A DNA stretch of 12,401 bases from a virus. Its lineage: Duplodnaviria; Heunggongvirae; Uroviricota; Caudoviricetes. Made by a program: the position numbers and the translations under genes. Shown piece by piece: positions 262-11,778 of the stretch. Below the pieces are notes generated by a model, which saw only the letters and a list, made by a program, of their open reading frames with translations, was not told the DNA's origin and did not search any database. Every line of letters starts with the position of its first letter. Positions within the stretch are counted from its first letter, which is position 1. The stretch is taken from the IMG/VR virus record IMGVR_UViG_2597490253_000016. One strand, 5' to 3'.

Positions 262-816
262 TCAAAACCAGGGAATAGTGGCGGTTGCGCTTAATCCATA
301 ACTACTAAATTCCCCTTTAACCGGTTCTTTGAGCAAATCACCATGACGGATAAACAACTTGAACAGTTGCTGACTCGACAAACTCTTCATATTGAGAAAA
401 GGTAAATCAGTCCGCTGTTCAGCCTGCGTCGCCAGTCGTTCAATTGCCTGTTCTTCAGTTAGCCAGCCTTTTTTCACTGAACGCCTTAACAGACGCTGAG
501 GGTTACTTTTAACCTGCACGCGGCTTACTACTCGCCAGCCTTTTATTTCTGGAACGGGAGTGACAGGTGAACATTGGCAATAGTCCGTTAGTCCTTTACG
601 CCACGTTGAGGCTTCAAGCGCCTGCAATGCCTGGGCGCTACCATGCAAGCGTAAACGCGCTCCAGGCATAACATTTACGTCAGGGAAACTCACGCCGATA
701 TCGCCTTGCCCTCTTGCACCTAATACCCGATGCAGTTTTGCAAATAACGCCGCCATCAACATTTCGCTCGAAAATTCAGGATCTGGCAGAACGCGGATCT
801 CAAGGTAGTGATCCAT
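262..816 (-). CDS. cas6f: Cas6f (Csy4) crRNA-processing endoribonuclease
   Basis: ORF-track protein contains MDHYLEIRVLPDPEF...GVSFPD...SRVQVKSNP...FKLFIRHG...YGLS...IPWF, co-linear with Csy4 as I recall it. I place the start at the second in-frame ATG (814-816) because it aligns with the Csy4 N-terminus and has an AAGGAG Shine-Dalgarno 6 nt upstream; the ORF-track start at 858 would add 14 residues. Stop TGA at 262-264. Confidence 0.9.
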   Translation of the reverse strand: MDHYLEIRVLPDPEFSSEMLMAALFAKLHRVLGARGQGDIGVSFPDVNVMPGARLRLHGSAQALQALEASTWRKGLTDYCQCSPVTPVPEIKGWRVVSRVQVKSNPQRLLRRSVKKGWLTEEQAIERLATQAEQRTDLPFLNMKSLSSQQLFKLFIRHGDLLKEPVKGEFSSYGLSATATIPWF

Positions 817-826
817 TGGCAGCTCC

Positions 827-1828
827 TTATTCCGATTTCTCACCAAAGACACCGCCACGGATCAGCACAGCCATCACGTAGTGCTGCTGCTCAACGTCTG
901 GTTTCATCCCTTTAGTCACCCAATTGTCCAGTAAGGTATAAAAGTCGAGTTTTTCTTTCGGTTGACGGCAGGCCACACCGCGACTGGTTACAGAACCGTA
1001 AGGTTCCACGGCTATAGCCCCCAATTCATCAACCTTTGGATGCCAGGTATCAATGGTACGTAAAGCATTGCCAATCTTCTGAGAGTGAATACCGGCAATG
1101 CCAGCCACCTGGTATAACACGCGACTTTTACTACTGTTGCTGTCGAGTACCAGCTCCTGCGACGGAAAAACTTCTTGCCCGGCACCAAGACGAACCTGCG
1201 CTTCAACGGTAAGCATCACCCACTCTTTTGCGCTTAATCCTTGCTCTATAATGGCCGCCAGCTGCGTGACCGCTGCCTGTCCCTGGTCAAATTGACGTAA
1301 AGAGAAGTCATGGCTGTTAAAAGTCCATGACGTCTCGTTAGCAGTCACTTTCACCTGGATCTGTTCGGCACCAATGCGGTTGCGCCACAGAAAACGACCA
1401 TTTGCCAGATTCAGCGCATAGCGAAGCGCCAGCTCTTTAAAGCCATGTTCGCTGATGTAACCTTCAATGACCCCGGAAAGCGCCTCCTGGTAAGCCATAT
1501 CATTACATACTGACGGTGTGGATAAATTACCCAGCACACGCAGCGTAAACACCACCTTTAACGTATCCGTATCTACCGGAAGCGAAGCCACATCCACCCG
1601 TTGCAGGTTGGCTTTTTGGATTTCAGCATCCAGTTTTGTGGGATCGCTGACAATGGCATTTTTCAGGCGATTAGAGATGGTTCCGCGGACCGCTTTCTCC
1701 TGAATCTCAATGGGTTGCCATTCATTTCCTTGCCAGTTACCTGCGTACATTACCGCGTCAGAGGTTGCCAGTTTGCGCTCAAATGCCAGTACCGACGCCG
1801 TTTTTATTGCTACAGGAGCCTTTGCCAT
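827..1828 (-). CDS. csy3: Csy3 / Cas7f, backbone subunit of the type I-F Csy (Cascade) complex
   Basis: 333-aa ORF with [94 protein letters not shown], recognisably Csy3-like. AAGGA Shine-Dalgarno upstream of ATG 1826-1828. Confidence 0.93.
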
Positions 1829-1838
1829 AATTATGTCC

Positions 1839-2762
1839 TTATTCTAAATCGTCATATTCATTAAAGGTAAAATCATCAACAACTGGCGTTGCCGAACAAT
1901 AGTAGCCAGTGTCCGTTGTGCGGTAACGCCACATCAGCGCTTGCAAGTCTGTAGTGCGATGTAATCCGCGCCATTCGCCAATGCCATATACCGCTTCAGC
2001 AAAGGCAAATGGCGTCACGGTGTCGCGCGCATTTTCAACTTCACCGGGTGCGTAAACAGGAGAAATGCGTTGGTAGCCACACATTAACGGTACCAGGAAA
2101 CCAGGTATTGGCTTCGGCTGGTATACCCATTTTGCGCTGTTGTCTTCAGCCGGAGATTCGGCCTGATATTTAATCGCGGCGAAATCAAGCCAGGCATCCA
2201 GCAACGAGATGTCGGGATGTTGTTGGTGATGTTCAGCCAGCCATTCACTGCGATCGTAAAGCGCATAACCCGGCATTAACCGCCAGACGATTTTACGCAG
2301 TTGCTTTTCATCTTCAGGCGCATGAAAAAGCTGCGGATCGCGCATACTGACAATGCTGCCGCCCGCCAGTTTGTGGCTCTGGCAAAGCATTTTCAGATAG
2401 TCACAAAGAACTTTTCTGCCATATTCACCATTGGTGATTTCGCCATTACATTCAATCAGTAGAGAAACCGTCAAGTGCATGCGGCCCTCTTCATTGAACG
2501 AGGCGGTTTTACCTTCTCTGGTTAATGGGTTACGGGTGAGAGCGAACTAAAAATCGCGCCCAGAGCTGTACGCCTGAATATGCTGTTCATGGCTTACTAC
2601 CGCACAACCATCAAAACTTACGCCAAATTCATCCACGACTTTGCGAGAAAGCGCATGGACATAACCGAGAAAATGGGTCATCGACGGGAATCCCCAGGTC
2701 AACCCGGAGACAGCGTTAGCGTTTTCGATGCGTATATGGGGTAACAAGAGCAGATAACTCAT
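1839..2762 (-). pseudogene. csy2: Csy2 / Cas5f interrupted by an in-frame amber (TAG) codon at 2547-2549
   Basis: Two ORF-track fragments (2547..2762, 71 aa; 1839..2480, 213 aa) are in the same frame. Translating the gap by hand gives ...[37 protein letters not shown]..., so Cas5f-like similarity runs straight through the stop (plus-strand cta at 2547-2549). Full length would be 307 codons. The ATG (2762-2760) overlaps the csy1 stop in an ATGA arrangement. A sequencing error or amber suppression cannot be excluded from sequence alone. Confidence 0.7.
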
Positions 2763-4066
2763 TTCAGCGCCTCCTGCAAAACAGCTTCCATTTCACGCAT
2801 CCGTTGAGCGAACAGAGACTGGCTGCGCCACTCTTTTTGTTCGACAGCGCCTACGTCAAAACTGGATTTTTTCAGGCGATAGTTCAGCCAGCGTGCGAAA
2901 TCATCGGCGACAGTTACTTGCCAGTCGTTTTTCTCACGCTCCTGTTTGAAAGTCTCATCTGAGAGGCTTCGCCACGGGTCCAGCCAAAGTTGTTGGTGGC
3001 GAGGTAAGTCTGGTGATTGTGCGGACCATCCCTGCCATTTTTCTTGCTGAAAAGCGGATGCCTGCATGAACAGCAAATCGATCAACTCATCAATATATTT
3101 CGCCCGCACAGTTCGGATATGGACATTATTTATGTCAACCTTCAGTAAGTAGGTCATCTGGGCGACAATGCCTGAAGCCGCCCGATTGAAATCGCCGCGT
3201 AGGGAAAAAATACTGCGCATGTTTTGTGGCGCGCGATCCAGCGTCGCCCAGGTGGGCGGCATTGACGGCAACAGCCAGACACGGCCACCCCGCACACTAT
3301 TGAGCAAAGAAATATTCTGCGGTTTTGTGCCGCCAAAATGCATTTCGGCAAGATTAGGAAACCAGATATCTGGCTGGGAGTGCCATTTTCCTGCTTTGCG
3401 GGCATCGCGAATGGCTTTCGACTCCTCACTAAAGCGCACGGCGGTTAGCTTTTCATACATCGCCTGCGCCAGTGAACTGGAAAACAGTGGGCATAACAGG
3501 TGATAACCATCCGCAACAGGGAAATAGATTTGTTTCGCCAGTTTATGGCTGGAAGGCCGTCCAGTAGTCCATGCCTGGCTAAACCCAGCTACCCACAGCT
3601 CCAGTTGCACTTTATCCTCTGCAAACGTACTTAATGCCTGATAATCACCACGCTTCAGGCTGGCAAGCAGTGAATCTCCGTTCACATCGGTTTGTAGCAA
3701 CTTTGCTACGTCAAGTGCAGCGGCGTTACCAATCGCGTCAGTAGCGACATTCGCCAACGATGCTGTGTTTAAATAGCTTTCGTTAGCGGAGGTTTCCAGA
3801 TAAAAGCTACTGGCTTTAGAATCACCATGACTGAATTTAGCGCCATGAGTGACTAATTTGATTTGCCCGGCACGCTTTGCCGCATCCGTTAACCAGTTAC
3901 GTGGCAAGTAGCGTGCTTCGAGTTCCTGCCGCTCCTGAGCGATAACGCTGGCGTCCTCGCCCTGTTCCACTCGCTTTGCGGCTTCTTTTTCAAAGGCATC
4001 GATTTTGGGTTGCCTTCGCGAAGCGATGTATTCAGTAATAAATTGTATTAGCGCCGTTTTTTCCAT
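2759..4066 (-). CDS. csy1: Csy1 / Cas8f, large subunit of the type I-F Csy complex
   Basis: 435-aa ORF immediately upstream of csy2 with ATGA overlap; size and operon position match Csy1 (about 434 aa in Pseudomonas aeruginosa). Strong AAGGAG Shine-Dalgarno 6 nt upstream of ATG 4064-4066. Confidence 0.9.
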   Translation of the reverse strand: MEKTALIQFITEYIASRRQPKIDAFEKEAAKRVEQGEDASVIAQERQELEARYLPRNWLTDAAKRAGQIKLVTHGAKFSHGDSKASSFYLETSANESYLNTASLANVATDAIGNAAALDVAKLLQTDVNGDSLLASLKRGDYQALSTFAEDKVQLELWVAGFSQAWTTGRPSSHKLAKQIYFPVADGYHLLCPLFSSSLAQAMYEKLTAVRFSEESKAIRDARKAGKWHSQPDIWFPNLAEMHFGGTKPQNISLLNSVRGGRVWLLPSMPPTWATLDRAPQNMRSIFSLRGDFNRAASGIVAQMTYLLKVDINNVHIRTVRAKYIDELIDLLFMQASAFQQEKWQGWSAQSPDLPRHQQLWLDPWRSLSDETFKQEREKNDWQVTVADDFARWLNYRLKKSSFDVGAVEQKEWRSQSLFAQRMREMEAVLQEALK

Positions 4067-4395: not shown

Positions 4396-7300
4396 TCACA
4401 TGTTGCGAAACACACCTAACCAGGGGTGATAACGCCAGTCATCGACCGCATCTTCTTCACTGACGGGTACTCTCACCTCCGCAAACTTTTCCCCAACGTT
4501 TGCTATCTCACAACTTTGCTTATCAGCTAAATTCAACAAAACGTGTTGGTAATCCATCACGCCCCAGCAAGCGACGCCGCTGGCGCATCTCACCTCTTCT
4601 CGCCTGAAATTCCCTTGCGCTTTACGCTCGTTGTCGCCCGTGCGGGAATAGAAACGCGCTTCGCTTTCTTCATCATCCATATGCAGAAAAAACACCGCCT
4701 CCGGCAAAGGGGAATAACGAAATGGCGTCTGGCGCTGCATCCAGCCGTTCCAGCTTAGCGGTGCACGCCACCATTGCGCCGCCACCACATGTTTGCTTTT
4801 ACTGCTCATCAATTCGGCGGATAAACGACTATGTTCTAGCTCCGCCAGTTTGTTGGCATTATTGGCAGACAGGATCCGCGGCAAGGCGTTAATCGTCCGG
4901 TAGTCCGCGATCGGAATCAGTTCGCAAATATCGTGGCTATTCAGCAAGTGTTCTTTTGTTTCGAAACCAGGCTTACAAAATGCGGGGGCTTTTTTCTGCA
5001 ATGATTTGATATTGCTACGCAAAATAACCAGATTCTCACTGGTCGGCACATTTCTACGGTGGCGCTGAATACGTCCGGCAAATTGAATTATCGAACGCAT
5101 GGAGCTTGGTTCGATAATTCCCCAGTCCGCATCCCAGTCACGCCCCACTTCTATAACCGATGTCCCCAACACCACAAACAGATGGTGCGATTCCGGACGG
5201 TTATGTAAGGCATCTGCGATATCTTCGTTGTTCCAGAAATCGAGTTCGTTATGACGAGTAAAAGCGCGATCCAGTCGCTTCTCAATATCTGAACGCACCG
5301 CCAGCGGATGTCGGGAGTGGTAAACACAGTAATGAATGCAGACATCTTCTGGTGAAGGAATGGCAATCAGGGCTTTGGTCACCGCAACCAGTGGATTGAT
5401 ATTCGCGAAGCGCACCAGGCCCAGCGAAACGGTTTTACCGCTTTCGTGTCGCTGGCGATGCGCCTGATGCAACTTCAGCATTTGCGTATGCACCGTCTGG
5501 GCCACACTTTCGGTAACATCTTGTATCGCGCCTGATGCTGATGAAACCGAAGCTACACGCCCGAAATGCAGTCGTTCTTTTTCAGCCAGCATTACCGCTC
5601 GTCGTGCAACAAATTTGGCATGAGCATCACGAAACCCAGGTCCGTCGTAAATTTGCGTGGCATCAGCATCTTTTTCATCAAACCAGGCGCAGCATATATT
5701 GACAGGCCTGCCGTTGATACCACAAGACGCCTGCCACATTTTTCGCCCAGCAAGATAAGCCGCGAACAGCGCCTGAATCAAACCTGGCGGTAACGTCGCG
5801 GAAGAAAGTAATACCCGCGTTCCCAGCATCCCGGCCCAGTTCATCAATCGACATACCGCATGAAGATCAGCAATATCAAAGTCATCAGGTTCGTCGAGCA
5901 CTAAATCGCTGGTTAACAGGCGCAACATCGCCGGAAGCTGTTTCCCGCCTCGCACGCCCTCGGTCGCGGAAATAAGATGATCAATCGTCGAGACCAGAAT
6001 CGGCGCGCTTACTAACTCCTTAAGTTTGCTGTCATCCTTCAACCATTTTTCCAGCGCCCCGGTATGCAGGCTGCCTTCGTACTTAACGAACTGTTGCTCC
6101 TCTGCCGGCGACTCTTGCGAAGCACTTCCGCAATCATTGTCTATTTTTTCCTGTTGCCACAGTTGATTAACTGCCGCCGAACCAATCAGTACCGCCAGCT
6201 CATCCTCACCCAGCCCAAGCCGACTGCGCAGAGCATCGCCGGTTTGTAAAGTCAGCGTGCGCAATCCCAGCGCAACGGTAAAGCGGCACCCTTCTCGCTC
6301 GTCGGCAAGTGCATACATAATGCGGGCGTTCGCAAAGGTTTTACCACACCCCGTCGAGGCCATATTGACGCCGAAAAATCCCTCTTCACGACTTCGTTCA
6401 CGTAACGCTCGCGCCACATCCCAGGCTTTATCTTGCCAGCGATAATTCACATCTGTAGCCCGCTGGCTAAAACCTTTATGTCGGGCAATTGCCGGAAGCG
6501 ATGCCCGTGTGTGCATCAGTTGCCGCCCAAGCAGATACGCATGATGCGCGACGCCCACAAGGTGTTCGTCTACCCGTTGTTTGAGCGTGCCGCTTTGGCG
6601 ATCGCTATTTGCCCAGACGATATAATCCGGGTCCTGCCATTTTTGCTGCGCATCGCTTGAGGAATAGTAATGATCGGCAAGCATCAGACAAAAACGCGCC
6701 ATATGTAAGGGGAACAACTGTTCCATCTGCCCATATGTCTTTAAACCGAGCGCGTTGCTTGCCCGGCGGGCTATCTGACGCGCTTTTTCCCGCCAGCTCG
6801 CGCTTTGAAGCGGCGTTCCTGATGGAAACTGCCAGACGTGCGCAAAATCCTGTTGTGACCAGTCATCTCTGCGGTGGTTAACGGCATTCCAGTCAGCATT
6901 AAGTTGCTTCTCCAGCCAACTTTCACACCCTTTACATGATTGTTCCGACTGTGGAGAAAGATTCTCCGGCATTCGATGATGGGAAAGGATCAGCCAGCCT
7001 ACCGTTTTGGCTAATGGTTGCAGCGAACTGAACGGGCTATTTGAAAATTGAGGAGTGTCTTTTTGCAGGCGCTCAAGAATCGCAGATTCATCATCTGCCG
7101 TGAGTTCGCCAAGCTTCGCCAGCCACACATCGTCGGGCCGCTCACCGACAAACGTCTGAAAGAGCCGCAGTGAAATCCATTCATGTCGGTAAGGTTGATA
7201 ACTGCGGGTATTCTTTTGAGTCAGGCTTTGCTGAAAGCTGCGTCCTGATTTACCAAAATCATGAAATAGCCCAGCGATAGCCGCCAGCAGTGCAATACTT

Positions 7301-7629
7301 TCCGCGCACTGCCAGCGATTTTCTTCTTTGTTCACCAGGCTGATTTGCGTTGTTCGATTTGTGGGAACGCGGCCTTGAGCATTAAAGCGACGAATATTGC
7401 CGACAATCCACATCAGCTCCGTTTGCCCATTCTTCTTCAGCCAGTGACAAGCCACTGCGGTATTTCGCCTGGCGGTTTTGCGCAGTAAACGGCGGAGTGT
7501 ATTAACGCCTTCCAGAGTAATCACCGTTTGCCATGCTGCGTCACCAGTGCGTTCGGCAAACTGATCAATAATACGGCAGCTTTCCACGCGAGCATTTTTC
7601 GTACAGCGTGAGATAATTAGGACATTCAT
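4396..7629 (-). CDS. cas3: Cas2-Cas3 fusion (type I-F Cas2/3): N-terminal Cas2 domain, HD nuclease, superfamily 2 helicase
   Basis: 1077-aa ORF. HD motif in LLAAIAGLFHDFGKS, Walker A in MASTGCGKT, DExD-like LVLDEPDDFD; N-terminus MNVLIISRCTKNARVE...RNTAVACHW resembles Cas2. Start ATG 7629-7627 overlaps the cas1 stop (ATGA). Length matches I-F Cas2/3 (about 1076 aa in P. aeruginosa). Confidence 0.93.
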   Translation of the reverse strand: MNVLIISRCTKNARVESCRIIDQFAERTGDAAWQTVITLEGVNTLRRLLRKTARRNTAVACHWLKKNGQTELMWIVGNIRRFNAQGRVPTNRTTQISLVNKEENRWQCAESIALLAAIAGLFHDFGKSGRSFQQSLTQKNTRSYQPYRHEWISLRLFQTFVGERPDDVWLAKLGELTADDESAILERLQKDTPQFSNSPFSSLQPLAKTVGWLILSHHRMPENLSPQSEQSCKGCESWLEKQLNADWNAVNHRRDDWSQQDFAHVWQFPSGTPLQSASWREKARQIARRASNALGLKTYGQMEQLFPLHMARFCLMLADHYYSSSDAQQKWQDPDYIVWANSDRQSGTLKQRVDEHLVGVAHHAYLLGRQLMHTRASLPAIARHKGFSQRATDVNYRWQDKAWDVARALRERSREEGFFGVNMASTGCGKTFANARIMYALADEREGCRFTVALGLRTLTLQTGDALRSRLGLGEDELAVLIGSAAVNQLWQQEKIDNDCGSASQESPAEEQQFVKYEGSLHTGALEKWLKDDSKLKELVSAPILVSTIDHLISATEGVRGGKQLPAMLRLLTSDLVLDEPDDFDIADLHAVCRLMNWAGMLGTRVLLSSATLPPGLIQALFAAYLAGRKMWQASCGINGRPVNICCAWFDEKDADATQIYDGPGFRDAHAKFVARRAVMLAEKERLHFGRVASVSSASGAIQDVTESVAQTVHTQMLKLHQAHRQRHESGKTVSLGLVRFANINPLVAVTKALIAIPSPEDVCIHYCVYHSRHPLAVRSDIEKRLDRAFTRHNELDFWNNEDIADALHNRPESHHLFVVLGTSVIEVGRDWDADWGIIEPSSMRSIIQFAGRIQRHRRNVPTSENLVILRSNIKSLQKKAPAFCKPGFETKEHLLNSHDICELIPIADYRTINALPRILSANNANKLAELEHSRLSAELMSSKSKHVVAAQWWRAPLSWNGWMQRQTPFRYSPLPEAVFFLHMDDEESEARFYSRTGDNERKAQGNFRREEVRCASGVACWGVMDYQHVLLNLADKQSCEIANVGEKFAEVRVPVSEEDAVDDWRYHPWLGVFRNM

Positions 7630-8609
7630 TGGTCAGCCTTAGCCAGTGCCTGGGCCGTTTCCTGCAGAGAGGTGATCATGACATCCAGCGCATCCGCTTG
7701 TTGAAAGATATTAACACAGCGTTGACGAAACTCCTGAGCATCTTCTCCCGCCATTGCGGCAATAAATGCTTGCGGCATAACAAGAGCATCTTTAATCAGA
7801 TCGGCAAGGTCAAAAACAAGCCCGCCGCGACGTGTCTTACCATGCATTACAGCTAAACCGTGCGGGATACCTGTTACCCACGCCGCCACTGCTGCCAGTC
7901 CATAAGCCAGATAATTCCCTTGATCGAGGAAGCGGTTGGCCATATCGATACCACCGCCCCGTTTTGCGCGAGTGAAATCGCCATACCCCACGGTTTGACT
8001 GACCATTTTGTATAACGCTTTAGTCAATTTGGCCTCAACGAGCATAAGCTGCGTATGGTTTTCTGCCGCGTCTATTTCTTCACAAGTACGATTCAGGAGG
8101 GTATGCAGCGCATTAACATCAGGTTGAAATGCGTGTTCACGCAGCATTTTCGAGCTGGACCAGTGCTTATCGATATGTGTCAGGCGGATTAACTGAAAAC
8201 GTTTCGCGGCAGCAAGTCGTTTGTCTTCAACAAACCAGAAAGAAACCCACTGCTGGAGATACTCTGTAGGGCGATATTCACTTTGTGGGCTGAGCCAGGA
8301 GACATCAACATCCACTTCATTTGCTGAATACAGCGGCGTGCCATCCGTACCACAAAAGCCTACCATCACCCCGGCATGAGCAAATTCACGCATCGCCGCC
8401 TGGGTAACGGAAGTTCCCATTCCCAGCATCAACGCCGTGGTATTCGCAATGGGGATATTCCAGTAGTACGACTCTTTACCTTCGCTGGTAACATACTCCA
8501 CCCGCCCACCATTCACCTGTACCCGGCATTTTTCCAGATAATAAATATTGGCGCGTTTGGAGTGGAGAATGGTTTTGAGATCGGAAGGCGTAAGGTAATT
8601 CGAAGACAT
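7626..8609 (-). CDS. cas1: Cas1 integrase (type I-F)
   Basis: Protein contains LKTILHSKRANIYYL, RVEYVT, YWNIPIANTTALMLG, FCGTDGTPL, SWLSPQSEYRPTEYLQQWV, NRFLDQGNYLAYGLAA, GIPHGLAVMHGKTRRGGLVFDLADLIKD, strongly Cas1(I-F)-like. Start placed at the second ATG (8609-8607), which has AGGA 5 nt upstream; the ORF-track start at 8615 (2 codons longer) is an equally possible annotation. Confidence 0.92.
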   Translation of the reverse strand: MSSNYLTPSDLKTILHSKRANIYYLEKCRVQVNGGRVEYVTSEGKESYYWNIPIANTTALMLGMGTSVTQAAMREFAHAGVMVGFCGTDGTPLYSANEVDVDVSWLSPQSEYRPTEYLQQWVSFWFVEDKRLAAAKRFQLIRLTHIDKHWSSSKMLREHAFQPDVNALHTLLNRTCEEIDAAENHTQLMLVEAKLTKALYKMVSQTVGYGDFTRAKRGGGIDMANRFLDQGNYLAYGLAAVAAWVTGIPHGLAVMHGKTRRGGLVFDLADLIKDALVMPQAFIAAMAGEDAQEFRQRCVNIFQQADALDVMITSLQETAQALAKADQ

Positions 8610-8781: not shown

Positions 8782-9289
8782 TGTGAATACTGCCTGTACG
8801 GCAGTGAACAAGGAGAGACGGTCGCACTCTTCAACGTTCAGTTTCTAAGCTGCCTGTACGGCAGTGAACTGGCGGCAGGAGGGAGGACTGCTGCGCCATC
8901 ATTTCTAAGCTGCCTGTACGGCAGTGAACGCAGAGATTGAGCCATTCCCCGCAGCCGTGCTTTTCTAAGCTGCCTGTACGGCAGTGAACCCGCGCGGCTG
9001 AAATTGAGAGCCTCCGGCTGATTTCTAAGCTGCCTGTACGGCAGTGAACCAATAAAATATCAAAGGCGGTTTTATGCTGGCTTTCTAAGCTGCCTGTACG
9101 GCAGTGAACTTGTGCCTGTTTTATGCGGGCGCTCTGGTTTCTTTCTAAGCTGCCTGTACGGCAGTGAACACGCTGCGCAGTACCCTGACCGGTGCGAACG
9201 TTTTCTAAGCTGCCTGTACGGCAGTGAACGGTTTCGCCTCAATGATCTGCATATGGCGTCATTTCTAAGCTGCCTGTACGGCAGTGAAC
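8782..9289 (-). CRISPR. Type I-F CRISPR array: 9 repeats (8 identical 28-bp plus 1 degenerate terminal) and 8 spacers of 32 bp
   Basis: Plus-strand unit TTTCTAAGCTGCCTGTACGGCAGTGAAC, i.e. minus-strand GTTCACTGCCGTACAGGCAGCTTAGAAA (canonical I-F repeat). Repeats at 8842-8869, 8902-8929, 8962-8989, 9022-9049, 9082-9109, 9142-9169, 9202-9229, 9262-9289. Terminal repeat 8782-8809 reads GTTCACTGCCGTACAGGCAGtATTcAcA in crRNA sense (degenerate 3' end), which fixes the orientation: leader at the high-coordinate end, transcription toward cas1. Confidence 0.97.
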
Positions 9290-9437
9290 TCAAATACTAC
9301 ACGTTTAGCCCGTTGTTAATAAAGCAAAACCATCTCAATCTCCTGCTGCCACCCTTTTTTATCCTTACCTACCCGCAGCACTAATTATCAATAACTTAGC
9401 ATCATCATTAAAAAAAGGGTCTGAACCTCCTCCCCCC
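9290..9437 (-). other. Putative CRISPR leader
   Basis: AT-rich non-coding stretch between the first (leader-proximal) repeat and the clpA terminator. Orientation inferred from the degenerate terminal repeat at the opposite end. Confidence 0.55.
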
Positions 9438-9478
9438 ATAAATAAAAAGTCCGTAACCCCTGACGAGATCACGGACTT
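9438..9478 (-). terminator. Putative Rho-independent terminator of clpA
   Basis: Minus-strand 8-bp stem AAGTCCGT/ACGGACTT (9471-9478 pairing with 9447-9454) with a 16-nt loop, followed by TTTATTTAT; 23 nt after the clpA stop. Loop is long; not folded computationally. Confidence 0.5.
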
Positions 9479-9501
9479 AACCAACCTACCTGACAATCAG
9501 A

Positions 9502-11778
9502 TTAATGCGCTGCTTCCGCCTTGTGCTTTTGTGCACTCTGGAATCCGTAAGTCAGCTCATTTTTCTCTTTATCCAGCGCGACGGTGACCTGACCGCCGTC
9601 CACCAGCGAACCAAACAGCAGTTCGTTGGCGAGCGGTTTTTTCAGGTTGTCCTGGATGACACGCGCCATCGGACGTGCGCCCATTGCCCGGTCGTAACCT
9701 TTCTCGGCCAGCCAGTTACGCGCTTCCTGGCTCACTTCCAGAGAAACACCTTTCTGATCCAACTGAACCTGCAACTCGACGATGAATTTATCCACCACCT
9801 GATGGATCACGTCGGTTGACAGATGATCGAACCAGATAATGTTGTCGAGACGGTTACGGAATTCCGGTGTAAAGATCTTCTTGATCTCTTCCATCGCATC
9901 GGTGCTGTTATCCTGGTGGATAAGACCAATGGATTTGCGCTCGGTTTCACGTACCCCCGCGTTAGTGGTCATCACCAGCACCACGTTACGGAAGTCCGCT
10001 TTGCGTCCGTTGTTATCGGTCAGTGTACCGTTGTCCATCACCTGCAAGAGGATGTTGAACACGTCCGGGTGCGCTTTCTCGATTTCGTCCAGCAGCAGCA
10101 CCGCATGTGGATGCTTGATGACCGCATCAGTCAGCAAACCGCCCTGATCAAAACCAACGTATCCCGGAGGCGCACCAATCAGACGGCTGACGGTATGGCG
10201 TTCCATATACTCGGACATATCAAAGCGCAGAAGCTCAATGCCCAACGCTTTCGAAAGCTGTACCGTCACCTCTGTTTTCCCGACCCCAGTAGGGCCGGCA
10301 AACAGGAACGAACCGACCGGTTTATGTTCGTGACCTAAACCTGCACGCGCCATCTTAATGGCTTCAGTCAGCGCCTCAATGGCTTTATCCTGACCGAAGA
10401 CCAGCATTTTCAGGCGATCGCCGAGGTTTTTCAGGGTATCGCGGTCACTCTGAGAAACACTCTTCTCTGGAATGCGTGCAATACGGGCCACCACGGATTC
10501 AATATCCGCCACATTAACGGTTTTCTTGCGTTTGCTTACCGGCATCAGACGTGCGCGAGCGCCCGCTTCGTCGATAACATCAATCGCTTTATCCGGCAGA
10601 TGACGATCGTTAATGTATTTCACCGCCAGCTCTACCGCCGCACGCACCGCTTTTGCGGTATAACGCACGTCGTGGTGCGCTTCATACTTCGGTTTCAGGC
10701 CATTGATGATTTGAACAGTTTCTTCGATTGACGGTTCAGTAATATCAATTTTCTGGAAGCGACGCGCCAGAGCACGGTCTTTCTCAAAAATGTTGCTGAA
10801 CTCCTGATAGGTTGTCGAACCAATTACGCGGATTTTACCGCTGGAGAGCAACGGTTTGATCAGGTTAGCCGCATCGACCTGGCCACCAGACGCTGCACCC
10901 GCACCGATAATGGTGTGGATCTCATCAATAAACAGGATGCTATTAGTGTCTTGCTCCAGCTGCTTGAGCAACGCTTTAAAACGTTTTTCAAAGTCGCCGC
11001 GATATTTTGTGCCCGCTAACAGAGAACCGATATCGAGAGAGTAAATCGTACAGTCAGCCATCACTTCCGGCACATCGCCCTGAACAATTCGCCATGCAAG
11101 CCCCTCCGCAATCGCGGTTTTACCGACACCAGACTCCCCCACCAGCAGCGGGTTGTTTTTACGGCGACGGCAGAGAACCTGAATAGCACGCTCCAGCTCC
11201 TTCTCACGACCAATCAGTGGGTCGATTCCGCCCACTCGCGCAAGCTGATTCAGGTTCGTCGTGAAATTCTCCATACGTTCCTCCCCACCAGCTTGTTCTT
11301 CGCTGTTTGGCTGGCTGCCAGGATCAGAAGACTGTGTCGGCTCGTCTTTACGCGTGCCATGAGAGATAAAGTTCACCACATCAAGACGGCTGACTTCATG
11401 TTTGCGCAACAGATATGCCGCCTGCGACTCCTGTTCGCTAAAGATAGCGACCAGAACGTTTGCACCGGTAACCTCATTGCGACCGGAGGACTGGACATGG
11501 AAGACCGCACGTTGCAGTACACGCTGAAAACTCAGCGTCGGCTGTGTGTCGCGCTCCTCTTCACTGGCAGGCAGAACGGGTGTGGTTTGTTCAATAAAGG
11601 CTTCCAGTTCCTGACGGAGCGCAACCAAATCCACAGAACACGCTTCCAGCGCCTCCCGGGCAGATGGGTTACTGAGCAGCGCCAGTAACAAGTGCTCGAC
11701 GGTCATAAACTCATGACGGTGCTCGCGCGCTCTGGCGAAAGCCATATTTAAACTGAGTTCCAGTTCTTGATTGAGCAT
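9502..11778 (-). CDS. clpA: ATP-dependent Clp protease ATP-binding subunit ClpA
   Basis: Protein [35 protein letters not shown]... with two AAA+ modules (GESGVGKT and GPTGVGKT Walker A motifs), matching E. coli ClpA (758 aa) as I recall it. Start placed at ATG 11778-11776 with GGAGG Shine-Dalgarno; the ORF-track TTG at 11793 adds 5 residues and is rejected. Stop TAA at 9502-9504. Confidence 0.97.

Follow-up and report, generated by a model that had tools for sequence, protein, structure and literature searches.

What does the CRISPR array in this stretch of DNA remember, and can it still act on that memory? The window, by which we mean the whole stretch analysed (12,401 nucleotides, filed in IMG/VR as virus record IMGVR_UViG_2597490253_000016), carries an array that, together with its flanks, is 100% identical to DNA of uropathogenic Escherichia coli UTI89 and of many other ExPEC genomes, among them IHE3034, NU14, UM146, APEC O18, and PMV-1. 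Array and flanks at 99% identity or more were found in 88 records, and in UTI89 a RefSeq "CRISPR" feature has exactly the coordinates of the array. The UTI89-type strains are presumably ST95, phylogroup B2. Judging from the sequence, we consider it very likely that this is the known UTI89 type I-F array, an anti-plasmid memory whose interference is probably disabled by a stop codon in csy2.

Anatomy, orientation, and context of the array

Direct reading, a repeat finder, and a script all placed nine 28-nt repeats between 8782 and 9289 at a period of exactly 60 nt (Table 1). Eight of them (8842-9289) are identical and read TTTCTAAGCTGCCTGTACGGCAGTGAAC on the plus strand, which corresponds to GTTCACTGCCGTACAGGCAGCTTAGAAA in the crRNA sense. 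The ninth, at 8782-8809, shows 5 differences from the full repeat, all inside its last 8 nt in the crRNA sense. The identical full repeats and the degenerate terminal repeat described in the original prediction were thus confirmed by all three approaches, and the script bore out the leader-distal position of the degenerate repeat. The eight spacers are all different and 32 nt each; the script reproduced exactly both this length and the spacer strings reported earlier, and, as had been claimed, it detected no match to any spacer elsewhere in the window with up to 11 mismatches. Single 33-nt spacers occur in the array of strain NC101 (14603-14635 of its segment) and in a second array of UTI89 (1046-1078 of its segment), consistent with a frequency of about 12% reported for 33-nt acquisitions in type I-F systems. 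We also observed that S5 and S6 have in common a 13-nt block, GTTTTATGC(T/G)GGC, with 12/13 identity (chance probability of ∼0.007 over all spacer pairs, as a rough estimate), and these two spacers may derive from homologous sites in two related elements.

The assignment to type I-F made in the original prediction was upheld by the Rfam family CRISPR-DR4 (RF01317, "Ypest" subtype), which matched each of the eight full repeats in the minus-strand sense with 50.1 bits (gathering score, 35), and by the adjacent cas1f, cas2-3f, csy1, csy2, csy3, and cas6f genes. All six genes match type I-F NCBIfam equivalogs far above cut-off, csy2 being split by an internal stop. The strand of the Rfam match, the co-orientation of the cas operon, and the location of the leader on the high-coordinate side agree with the minus-strand crRNA sense proposed earlier. 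Repeats, spacing, cas set, leader with degenerate repeat, and PAM are all those of a type I-F array. The hairpin CUGCC-GUACA-GGCAG, which is the Cas6f stem-loop, was predicted in the typical and the terminal repeat alike. Since the terminal repeat keeps this hairpin and is altered in its 3' 8 nt alone, processing of the S1 crRNA would stay normal. Touchon & Rocha name the array CRISPR3, whereas the Mojica group uses CRISPR4.1/4.2. We rejected its classification as an orphan "anti-cas" CRISPR4 array, as cas-F genes are present and no spacer matches the I-F cas genes in the window. A type I-F3 transposon-associated (CAST) array was also rejected, as cas1f and cas2-3f are full length and the interval from clpA to tRNA-Ser contains no transposition genes.

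Table 1. Coordinates of the array and its neighbors in the window
Feature	Position	Strand	Basis or comment
cas6f (csy4), intact; endoribonuclease cutting the repeat hairpin	262..816	-	NCBIfam, RefSeq
csy3 (cas7f), intact	827..1828	-	NCBIfam, RefSeq
csy2 (cas5f) pseudogene	1839..2762	-	Codon 72 is TAG at 2549-2547; RefSeq internal stop
csy1 (cas8f), intact	2759..4066	-	NCBIfam, RefSeq
cas2-3f (Cas3f fusion), intact	4396..7629	-	NCBIfam, RefSeq
cas1f, intact	7626..8609	-	NCBIfam, RefSeq
Type I-F CRISPR array, 9 repeats and 8 spacers	8782..9289	-	Repeat finder, script, Rfam, RefSeq
Degenerate leader-distal terminal repeat, GTTCACTGCCGTACAGGCAGTATTCACA	8782..8809	-	Same sequence in Touchon & Rocha Table S5
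Spacer S1, oldest	8810..8841	-	Target: klcA/ardB-type antirestriction gene, plasmid leading region
Spacer S2	8870..8901	-	Target: upstream of ssb in IncI-complex/IncK-type conjugative plasmids, CC PAM
Spacer S3	8930..8961	-	No credible protospacer in phage, plasmid, E. coli, IMG/VR, and GTDB searches
Spacer S4	8990..9021	-	Target: Rac-type lambdoid prophage, strain STEC379
Spacer S5	9050..9081	-	No protospacer found in phage, plasmid, E. coli, and IMG/VR searches
Spacer S6	9110..9141	-	No protospacer found in phage, plasmid, E. coli, and IMG/VR searches
Spacer S7	9170..9201	-	No protospacer found in phage, plasmid, E. coli, IMG/VR, and JGI metagenome searches
Spacer S8, leader-proximal	9230..9261	-	No protospacer found in phage, plasmid, E. 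coli, IMG/VR, and GTDB searches
Leader	9290..9446	-	A+T content; block conserved with the leader of the second array
IHF-consensus motif TATCAATAACTTA	9386..9398	+	Inside the conserved leader block
Intrinsic-terminator-like hairpin and T-run after clpA	9447..9478	-	Separates clpA transcription from the leader
clpA, core-genome boundary of the locus	9502..11778	-	Annotation and profile match

On the minus strand the genes and elements follow in the order clpS, clpA, terminator-like hairpin, A+T-rich leader stretch, array, cas1f, cas2-3f, csy1, csy2, csy3, cas6f, and a tRNA-Ser(GGA), the sole tRNA in the window, closes the locus. The A+T content is 58.5% over 9290-9501 versus 49.7% for the whole window. 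A conserved block of the leader also occurs in the leader of the second UTI89 array, at an equal distance from the first repeat, and holds there a matching IHF motif in the same register (about 1200-1240 of that segment). In both leaders, the distance from the IHF-consensus motif to the first repeat downstream is about 97-132 nt; the window as a whole contains 3 such motifs versus 0.55 expected by chance. A simple sigma-70 scan of the minus strand of the leader returned no promoter match.

Plasmid and prophage targets of the spacers

The original prediction left the origin of the spacers to database searches. Phages, plasmids, and genomes were searched, and targets were obtained for S1, S2, and S4 and none for S3 and S5 to S8. 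S1 and S2 together matched at least 5,000 plasmid records, mostly conjugative, from Escherichia, Klebsiella, Salmonella, and Shigella. The S1 target covers codons 9-19 of a klcA/ardB-type "antirestriction protein" gene that lies beside ssb and psiB; it is perfect in F, and S1 has matches in about 1,900 plasmids. S1 also occurs on 200 chromosomes, to be compared with 238 I-F genomes, indicating that most E. coli I-F arrays have S1 as their conserved leader-distal anchor. Moreover, S1 is the sole spacer common to the UTI89-type and NC101 arrays.

In all plasmids the S1 protospacer is flanked by A-G-T (CT on the crRNA-identical strand) versus the consensus GG/CC. A query edited to carry the consensus PAM was matched exactly by none of 1,862 plasmid hits, and the context of the protospacer ruled out a slip of ±1 nt as the source of this flank. 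Of the PAMs anticipated earlier as CC, those of S2 (CC) and S4 (GGG) held, and S1 is an exception that keeps the G at position 2. AGC and GGC flanks are equally effective for interference by the native I-F system of E. coli LF82, and G at PAM position 2 alone is sufficient in E. coli I-F (Almendros et al. 2012, PMC3506596). Given this result with an A-G flank, we counted S1 as interference proficient, provided that the complex is intact. We rejected the idea that S1, with CT as its PAM, would do no harm to F-type plasmids, as A-G flanks support interference (PMC3506596).

S2 targets an unannotated, hairpin-forming, non-coding stretch just upstream of ssb. In the IncK2/Z plasmid that we examined, this site is ∼400 bp from the S1 target on the same strand; the S2 target was found neither in the examined segment of the F leading region nor in pUTI89. 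Among complete E. coli genomes, S2 had 431 plasmid places. In plasmid pSFE059, a 361-nt element (5700-6060) forms, as single-stranded DNA, one long and imperfect hairpin with a dG of -102.6 kcal/mol (z = -8.5), and the S2 protospacer is located in its 3' arm. From its like architecture, this element is probably an Frpo/ssi single-strand promoter. The 556 S2 records were distributed over 533 E. coli genomes, hence up to ∼23 genomes have an S2-like sequence on more than one replicon and possibly hold the array and a target plasmid in one cell.

S4 matched, at 31/32 positions, a helix-turn-helix gene in repressor position within a lambdoid prophage beside ttcA in strain STEC379, with the single mismatch at seed position 2. 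The recE-type exonuclease VIII of this prophage indicates that it is Rac-like. No phage origin emerged for the eight spacers, as none of them was matched at E ≤ 1 in a set of 50,697 phage records, and S3 to S8 had no match in 72,556 plasmids. In IMG/VR, scanned with every sixth base masked, S3, S5, S6, S7, and S8 were unmatched at full length, and S5 and S6 were likewise unmatched as 26-nt PAM-proximal patterns. S8 had no match in GTDB species genomes, and the four matches of S7 in JGI metagenomes were each a copy of the array. As a 26-nt pattern, S3 had one match among GTDB genomes, an ABC-permease gene in a metagenome-assembled genome of Subdoligranulum (a Firmicute), which we dismissed as chance: it agrees at 23/32 positions, and the entire distal end is mismatched. 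A chromosomal match, which according to the original prediction would indicate self-targeting, was absent. Indeed, S3 to S8 occurred at one place per E. coli genome, always the array, so that chromosomal self-targeting was rejected. That no target was identified for five of the eight spacers counts against reading the array as an anti-plasmid memory.

The csy2 stop codon, the resident plasmid, and the history of the array

Translation of csy2 revealed a single in-frame stop, at codon 72 of 307, where the window has TAG and both NC101 and strain 09A19CPO009 have CAG (Gln). Relative to NC101, one transition, at window position 2549, accounts for this change from Gln72 to amber. None of the other five cas genes contains a stop, and RefSeq marks csy2 of UTI89 as a pseudogene with an internal stop. 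The csy2 gene is carried by 238 of 5,426 complete E. coli genomes, and an 81-mer containing the TAG codon was present, as an exact match, in 125 of these 238. Csy2 (Cas5f) belongs to the core subunits of the Csy surveillance complex. Given this role, a protein cut at residue 72 of 307 is predicted to support neither interference nor priming, and the array is probably a non-functional record because of the stop. The stop (2547-2549) was absent from the original prediction, yet it decides whether the array can work. Read-through of the amber codon, or a suppressor tRNA elsewhere in the genome, may count against this loss of function; a suppressor tRNA inside the window was ruled out, the only tRNA being Ser(GGA). 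Naive spacer acquisition might continue, as Cas1 and Cas2-3 are intact.

The organization of the locus suggests how the system would operate. Minus-strand transcription out of the leader of the array would yield a precursor RNA, to be cleaved by Cas6f at the base of every repeat hairpin, and the resulting crRNAs would load into a Csy1-Csy2-Csy3-Cas6f complex able to recruit Cas2-3 to matching DNA with a G at PAM position 2. The spacers record past encounters with an antirestriction gene (S1), a probable single-strand-promoter hairpin (S2), and the repressor of a Rac-type prophage (S4). The targets of S1 and S2 belong to the leading region, the first to enter in conjugation of F-like and IncI-complex plasmids. 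With csy2 truncated, the surveillance complex should not assemble, interference and priming would be lost, and pUTI89, the resident plasmid of UTI89, would be kept.

We scanned the whole of pUTI89, allowing up to 7 mismatches, with the eight spacers of the array, the six spacers of the second UTI89 array (outside the window, next to infA, at 718-1106 of its segment), and seven extra spacers of the related array of 09A19CPO009. Three sites in total were obtained, matching S1, B3 (the third spacer of the second array), and X7 (one of the extra spacers). The S1 site has a CT flank and one mismatch, at position 6, which is synonymous (AAC to AAT). This imperfect site, together with the intactness of every cas gene but csy2, is what could be said for a system that is still active and tolerates pUTI89 only on account of that mismatch and the non-consensus PAM. 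We regard such a system as highly improbable. Type I complexes leave position 6 unpaired, and the mismatch in pUTI89 is tolerated. Furthermore, the A-G flank supported interference by an E. coli I-F system, and csy2 is truncated at codon 72. Finally, B3 matches the RepFIB replication-initiator gene (pUTI89 46340-46371) at 32/32 positions with a CC PAM, and an active system could not coexist with such a target. Working interference is incompatible with a replication gene that carries a perfect target and a PAM; the B3 site thus supports the loss of function of csy2. The marks of an active immune system would be a complete, intact effector complex and demonstrated interference; here, csy2 has an amber codon, and the B3 target persists on pUTI89. 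We infer that the strain keeps pUTI89 because the truncation of csy2 disables interference.

The array of 09A19CPO009 (NZ_CM148343.1; 7340-8300 of its segment) contains S1 to S7, seven further spacers (X1 to X7), and then S8, next to an intact csy2 (Gln72). In view of this 15-spacer relative, the UTI89-type array is most simply explained by an internal deletion of 7 units. The leader-proximal position of S8 given in the original prediction stands, but its adjacency to S7 is secondary, as seven spacers intervene in the relative. X7 matched at least 5,000 plasmids, at least 2,206 of them perfectly, and was the only one of X1 to X7 among the 40 plasmid matches listed. In pUTI89 its site has a CC PAM and is perfect from position 1 to 24, with mismatches at 25 and 28 only; X7 would have been lost from the UTI89-type array through the 7-unit deletion. 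Other arrays are shorter still: those of the APEC O1 type lack S3 to S5, and one metagenome variant has S7 joined directly to S2.

These variants bear on the idea that interference is dead and the array is nonetheless live, serving naive adaptation, crRNAs supplied in trans (for example, to an incoming I-F system), or regulation, a role of crRNAs on which Touchon & Rocha speculated. The intact cas1f, cas2-3f, and cas6f genes, the perfectly conserved repeats, and a leader that retains the conserved block with its IHF-like motif are in keeping with a live array. Against it, the examined members of the 88 near-identical genomes had no new leader-proximal spacer, and the variants observed were deletions. 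Moreover, all eight spacers are present in the relative with an intact csy2, so that none of them needs to postdate the csy2 mutation. We therefore consider a live array unlikely, and the UTI89-type array is best understood as the fossil of an anti-plasmid immune memory, frozen, partly deleted, and eroding. More tentatively, the ST95/UTI89 lineage might have lost its anti-plasmid immunity in two independent steps, the deletion of X7 and the csy2 amber mutation, as a precondition for the carriage of pUTI89/ColV-type virulence plasmids. If so, S1 would act as a permanent sentinel, or as a primer, directed at the leading region with which F-like plasmids enter first.

Comparison with known systems

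The locus in the window is that of UTI89 described in earlier work (PMC3506596, PMC3903273, PMC3784566), without any difference in sequence. Touchon & Rocha (2010) listed 9 repeats for this UTI89 array and a terminal repeat identical to the one here; they described plasmid matches of E. coli I-F arrays (antirestriction protein, methyltransferase, RepA, and transfer genes), including matches to the strain's own plasmid in UTI89, APEC O1, and S88, and they scored csy2 as present, with no pseudogene flag. Jiang et al. (2013, PMC3784566) reported that a UTI89 I-F spacer matches the resident pUTI89 and that csy2 has a premature TAG where ED1a, NRG857C, and LF82 have CAG, and cited UTI89 as a case in which CRISPR inactivation allows a plasmid to be carried. 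For UTI89, the published work therefore already covers the array, its plasmid-matching spacers, the match to the strain's own plasmid, and the csy2 mutation. In the literature on this locus, we did not find the invariant A-G flank of S1, the origin from a 15-spacer array and the accompanying loss of a spacer against pUTI89, the hairpin element that S2 matches, or the Rac-type prophage repressor targeted by S4. UTI89 is a textbook case of the cost of CRISPR immunity, in which a beneficial conjugative plasmid is kept beside a broken system that targets it. Our additions sharpen a testable hypothesis on how ST95 became permissive for F-type virulence plasmids and offer a natural comparison for asking whether ST95 became open to virulence and resistance plasmids because it lost I-F immunity.

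The I-F systems of Pectobacterium atrosepticum and Pseudomonas aeruginosa PA14 have the same 28-nt repeat family (CRISPR-DR4), 32-nt spacers, a GG/CC PAM, and Cas6f processing, and we take the P. atrosepticum repeat to be identical to that of the present array. A clustering of protospacers that is consistent with priming is a further feature in common (Richter 2014, PMC4117759). In contrast, Csy2 is truncated here, and interference and priming are predicted to be absent; E. coli I-F systems also accept a G at PAM position 2 alone. A preferential targeting of plasmid leading regions by CRISPR is described in the portion of Westra et al. (2013, PMC3737333) that we searched, where neither UTI89 nor type I-F is mentioned. 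The result given there is a statistical trend, whereas ours concerns a single array, in which the targets of S1 and S2, like that of X7 in the relative, lie within ∼1.5 kb of each other in the leading region, by ssb, psiB, and klcA.
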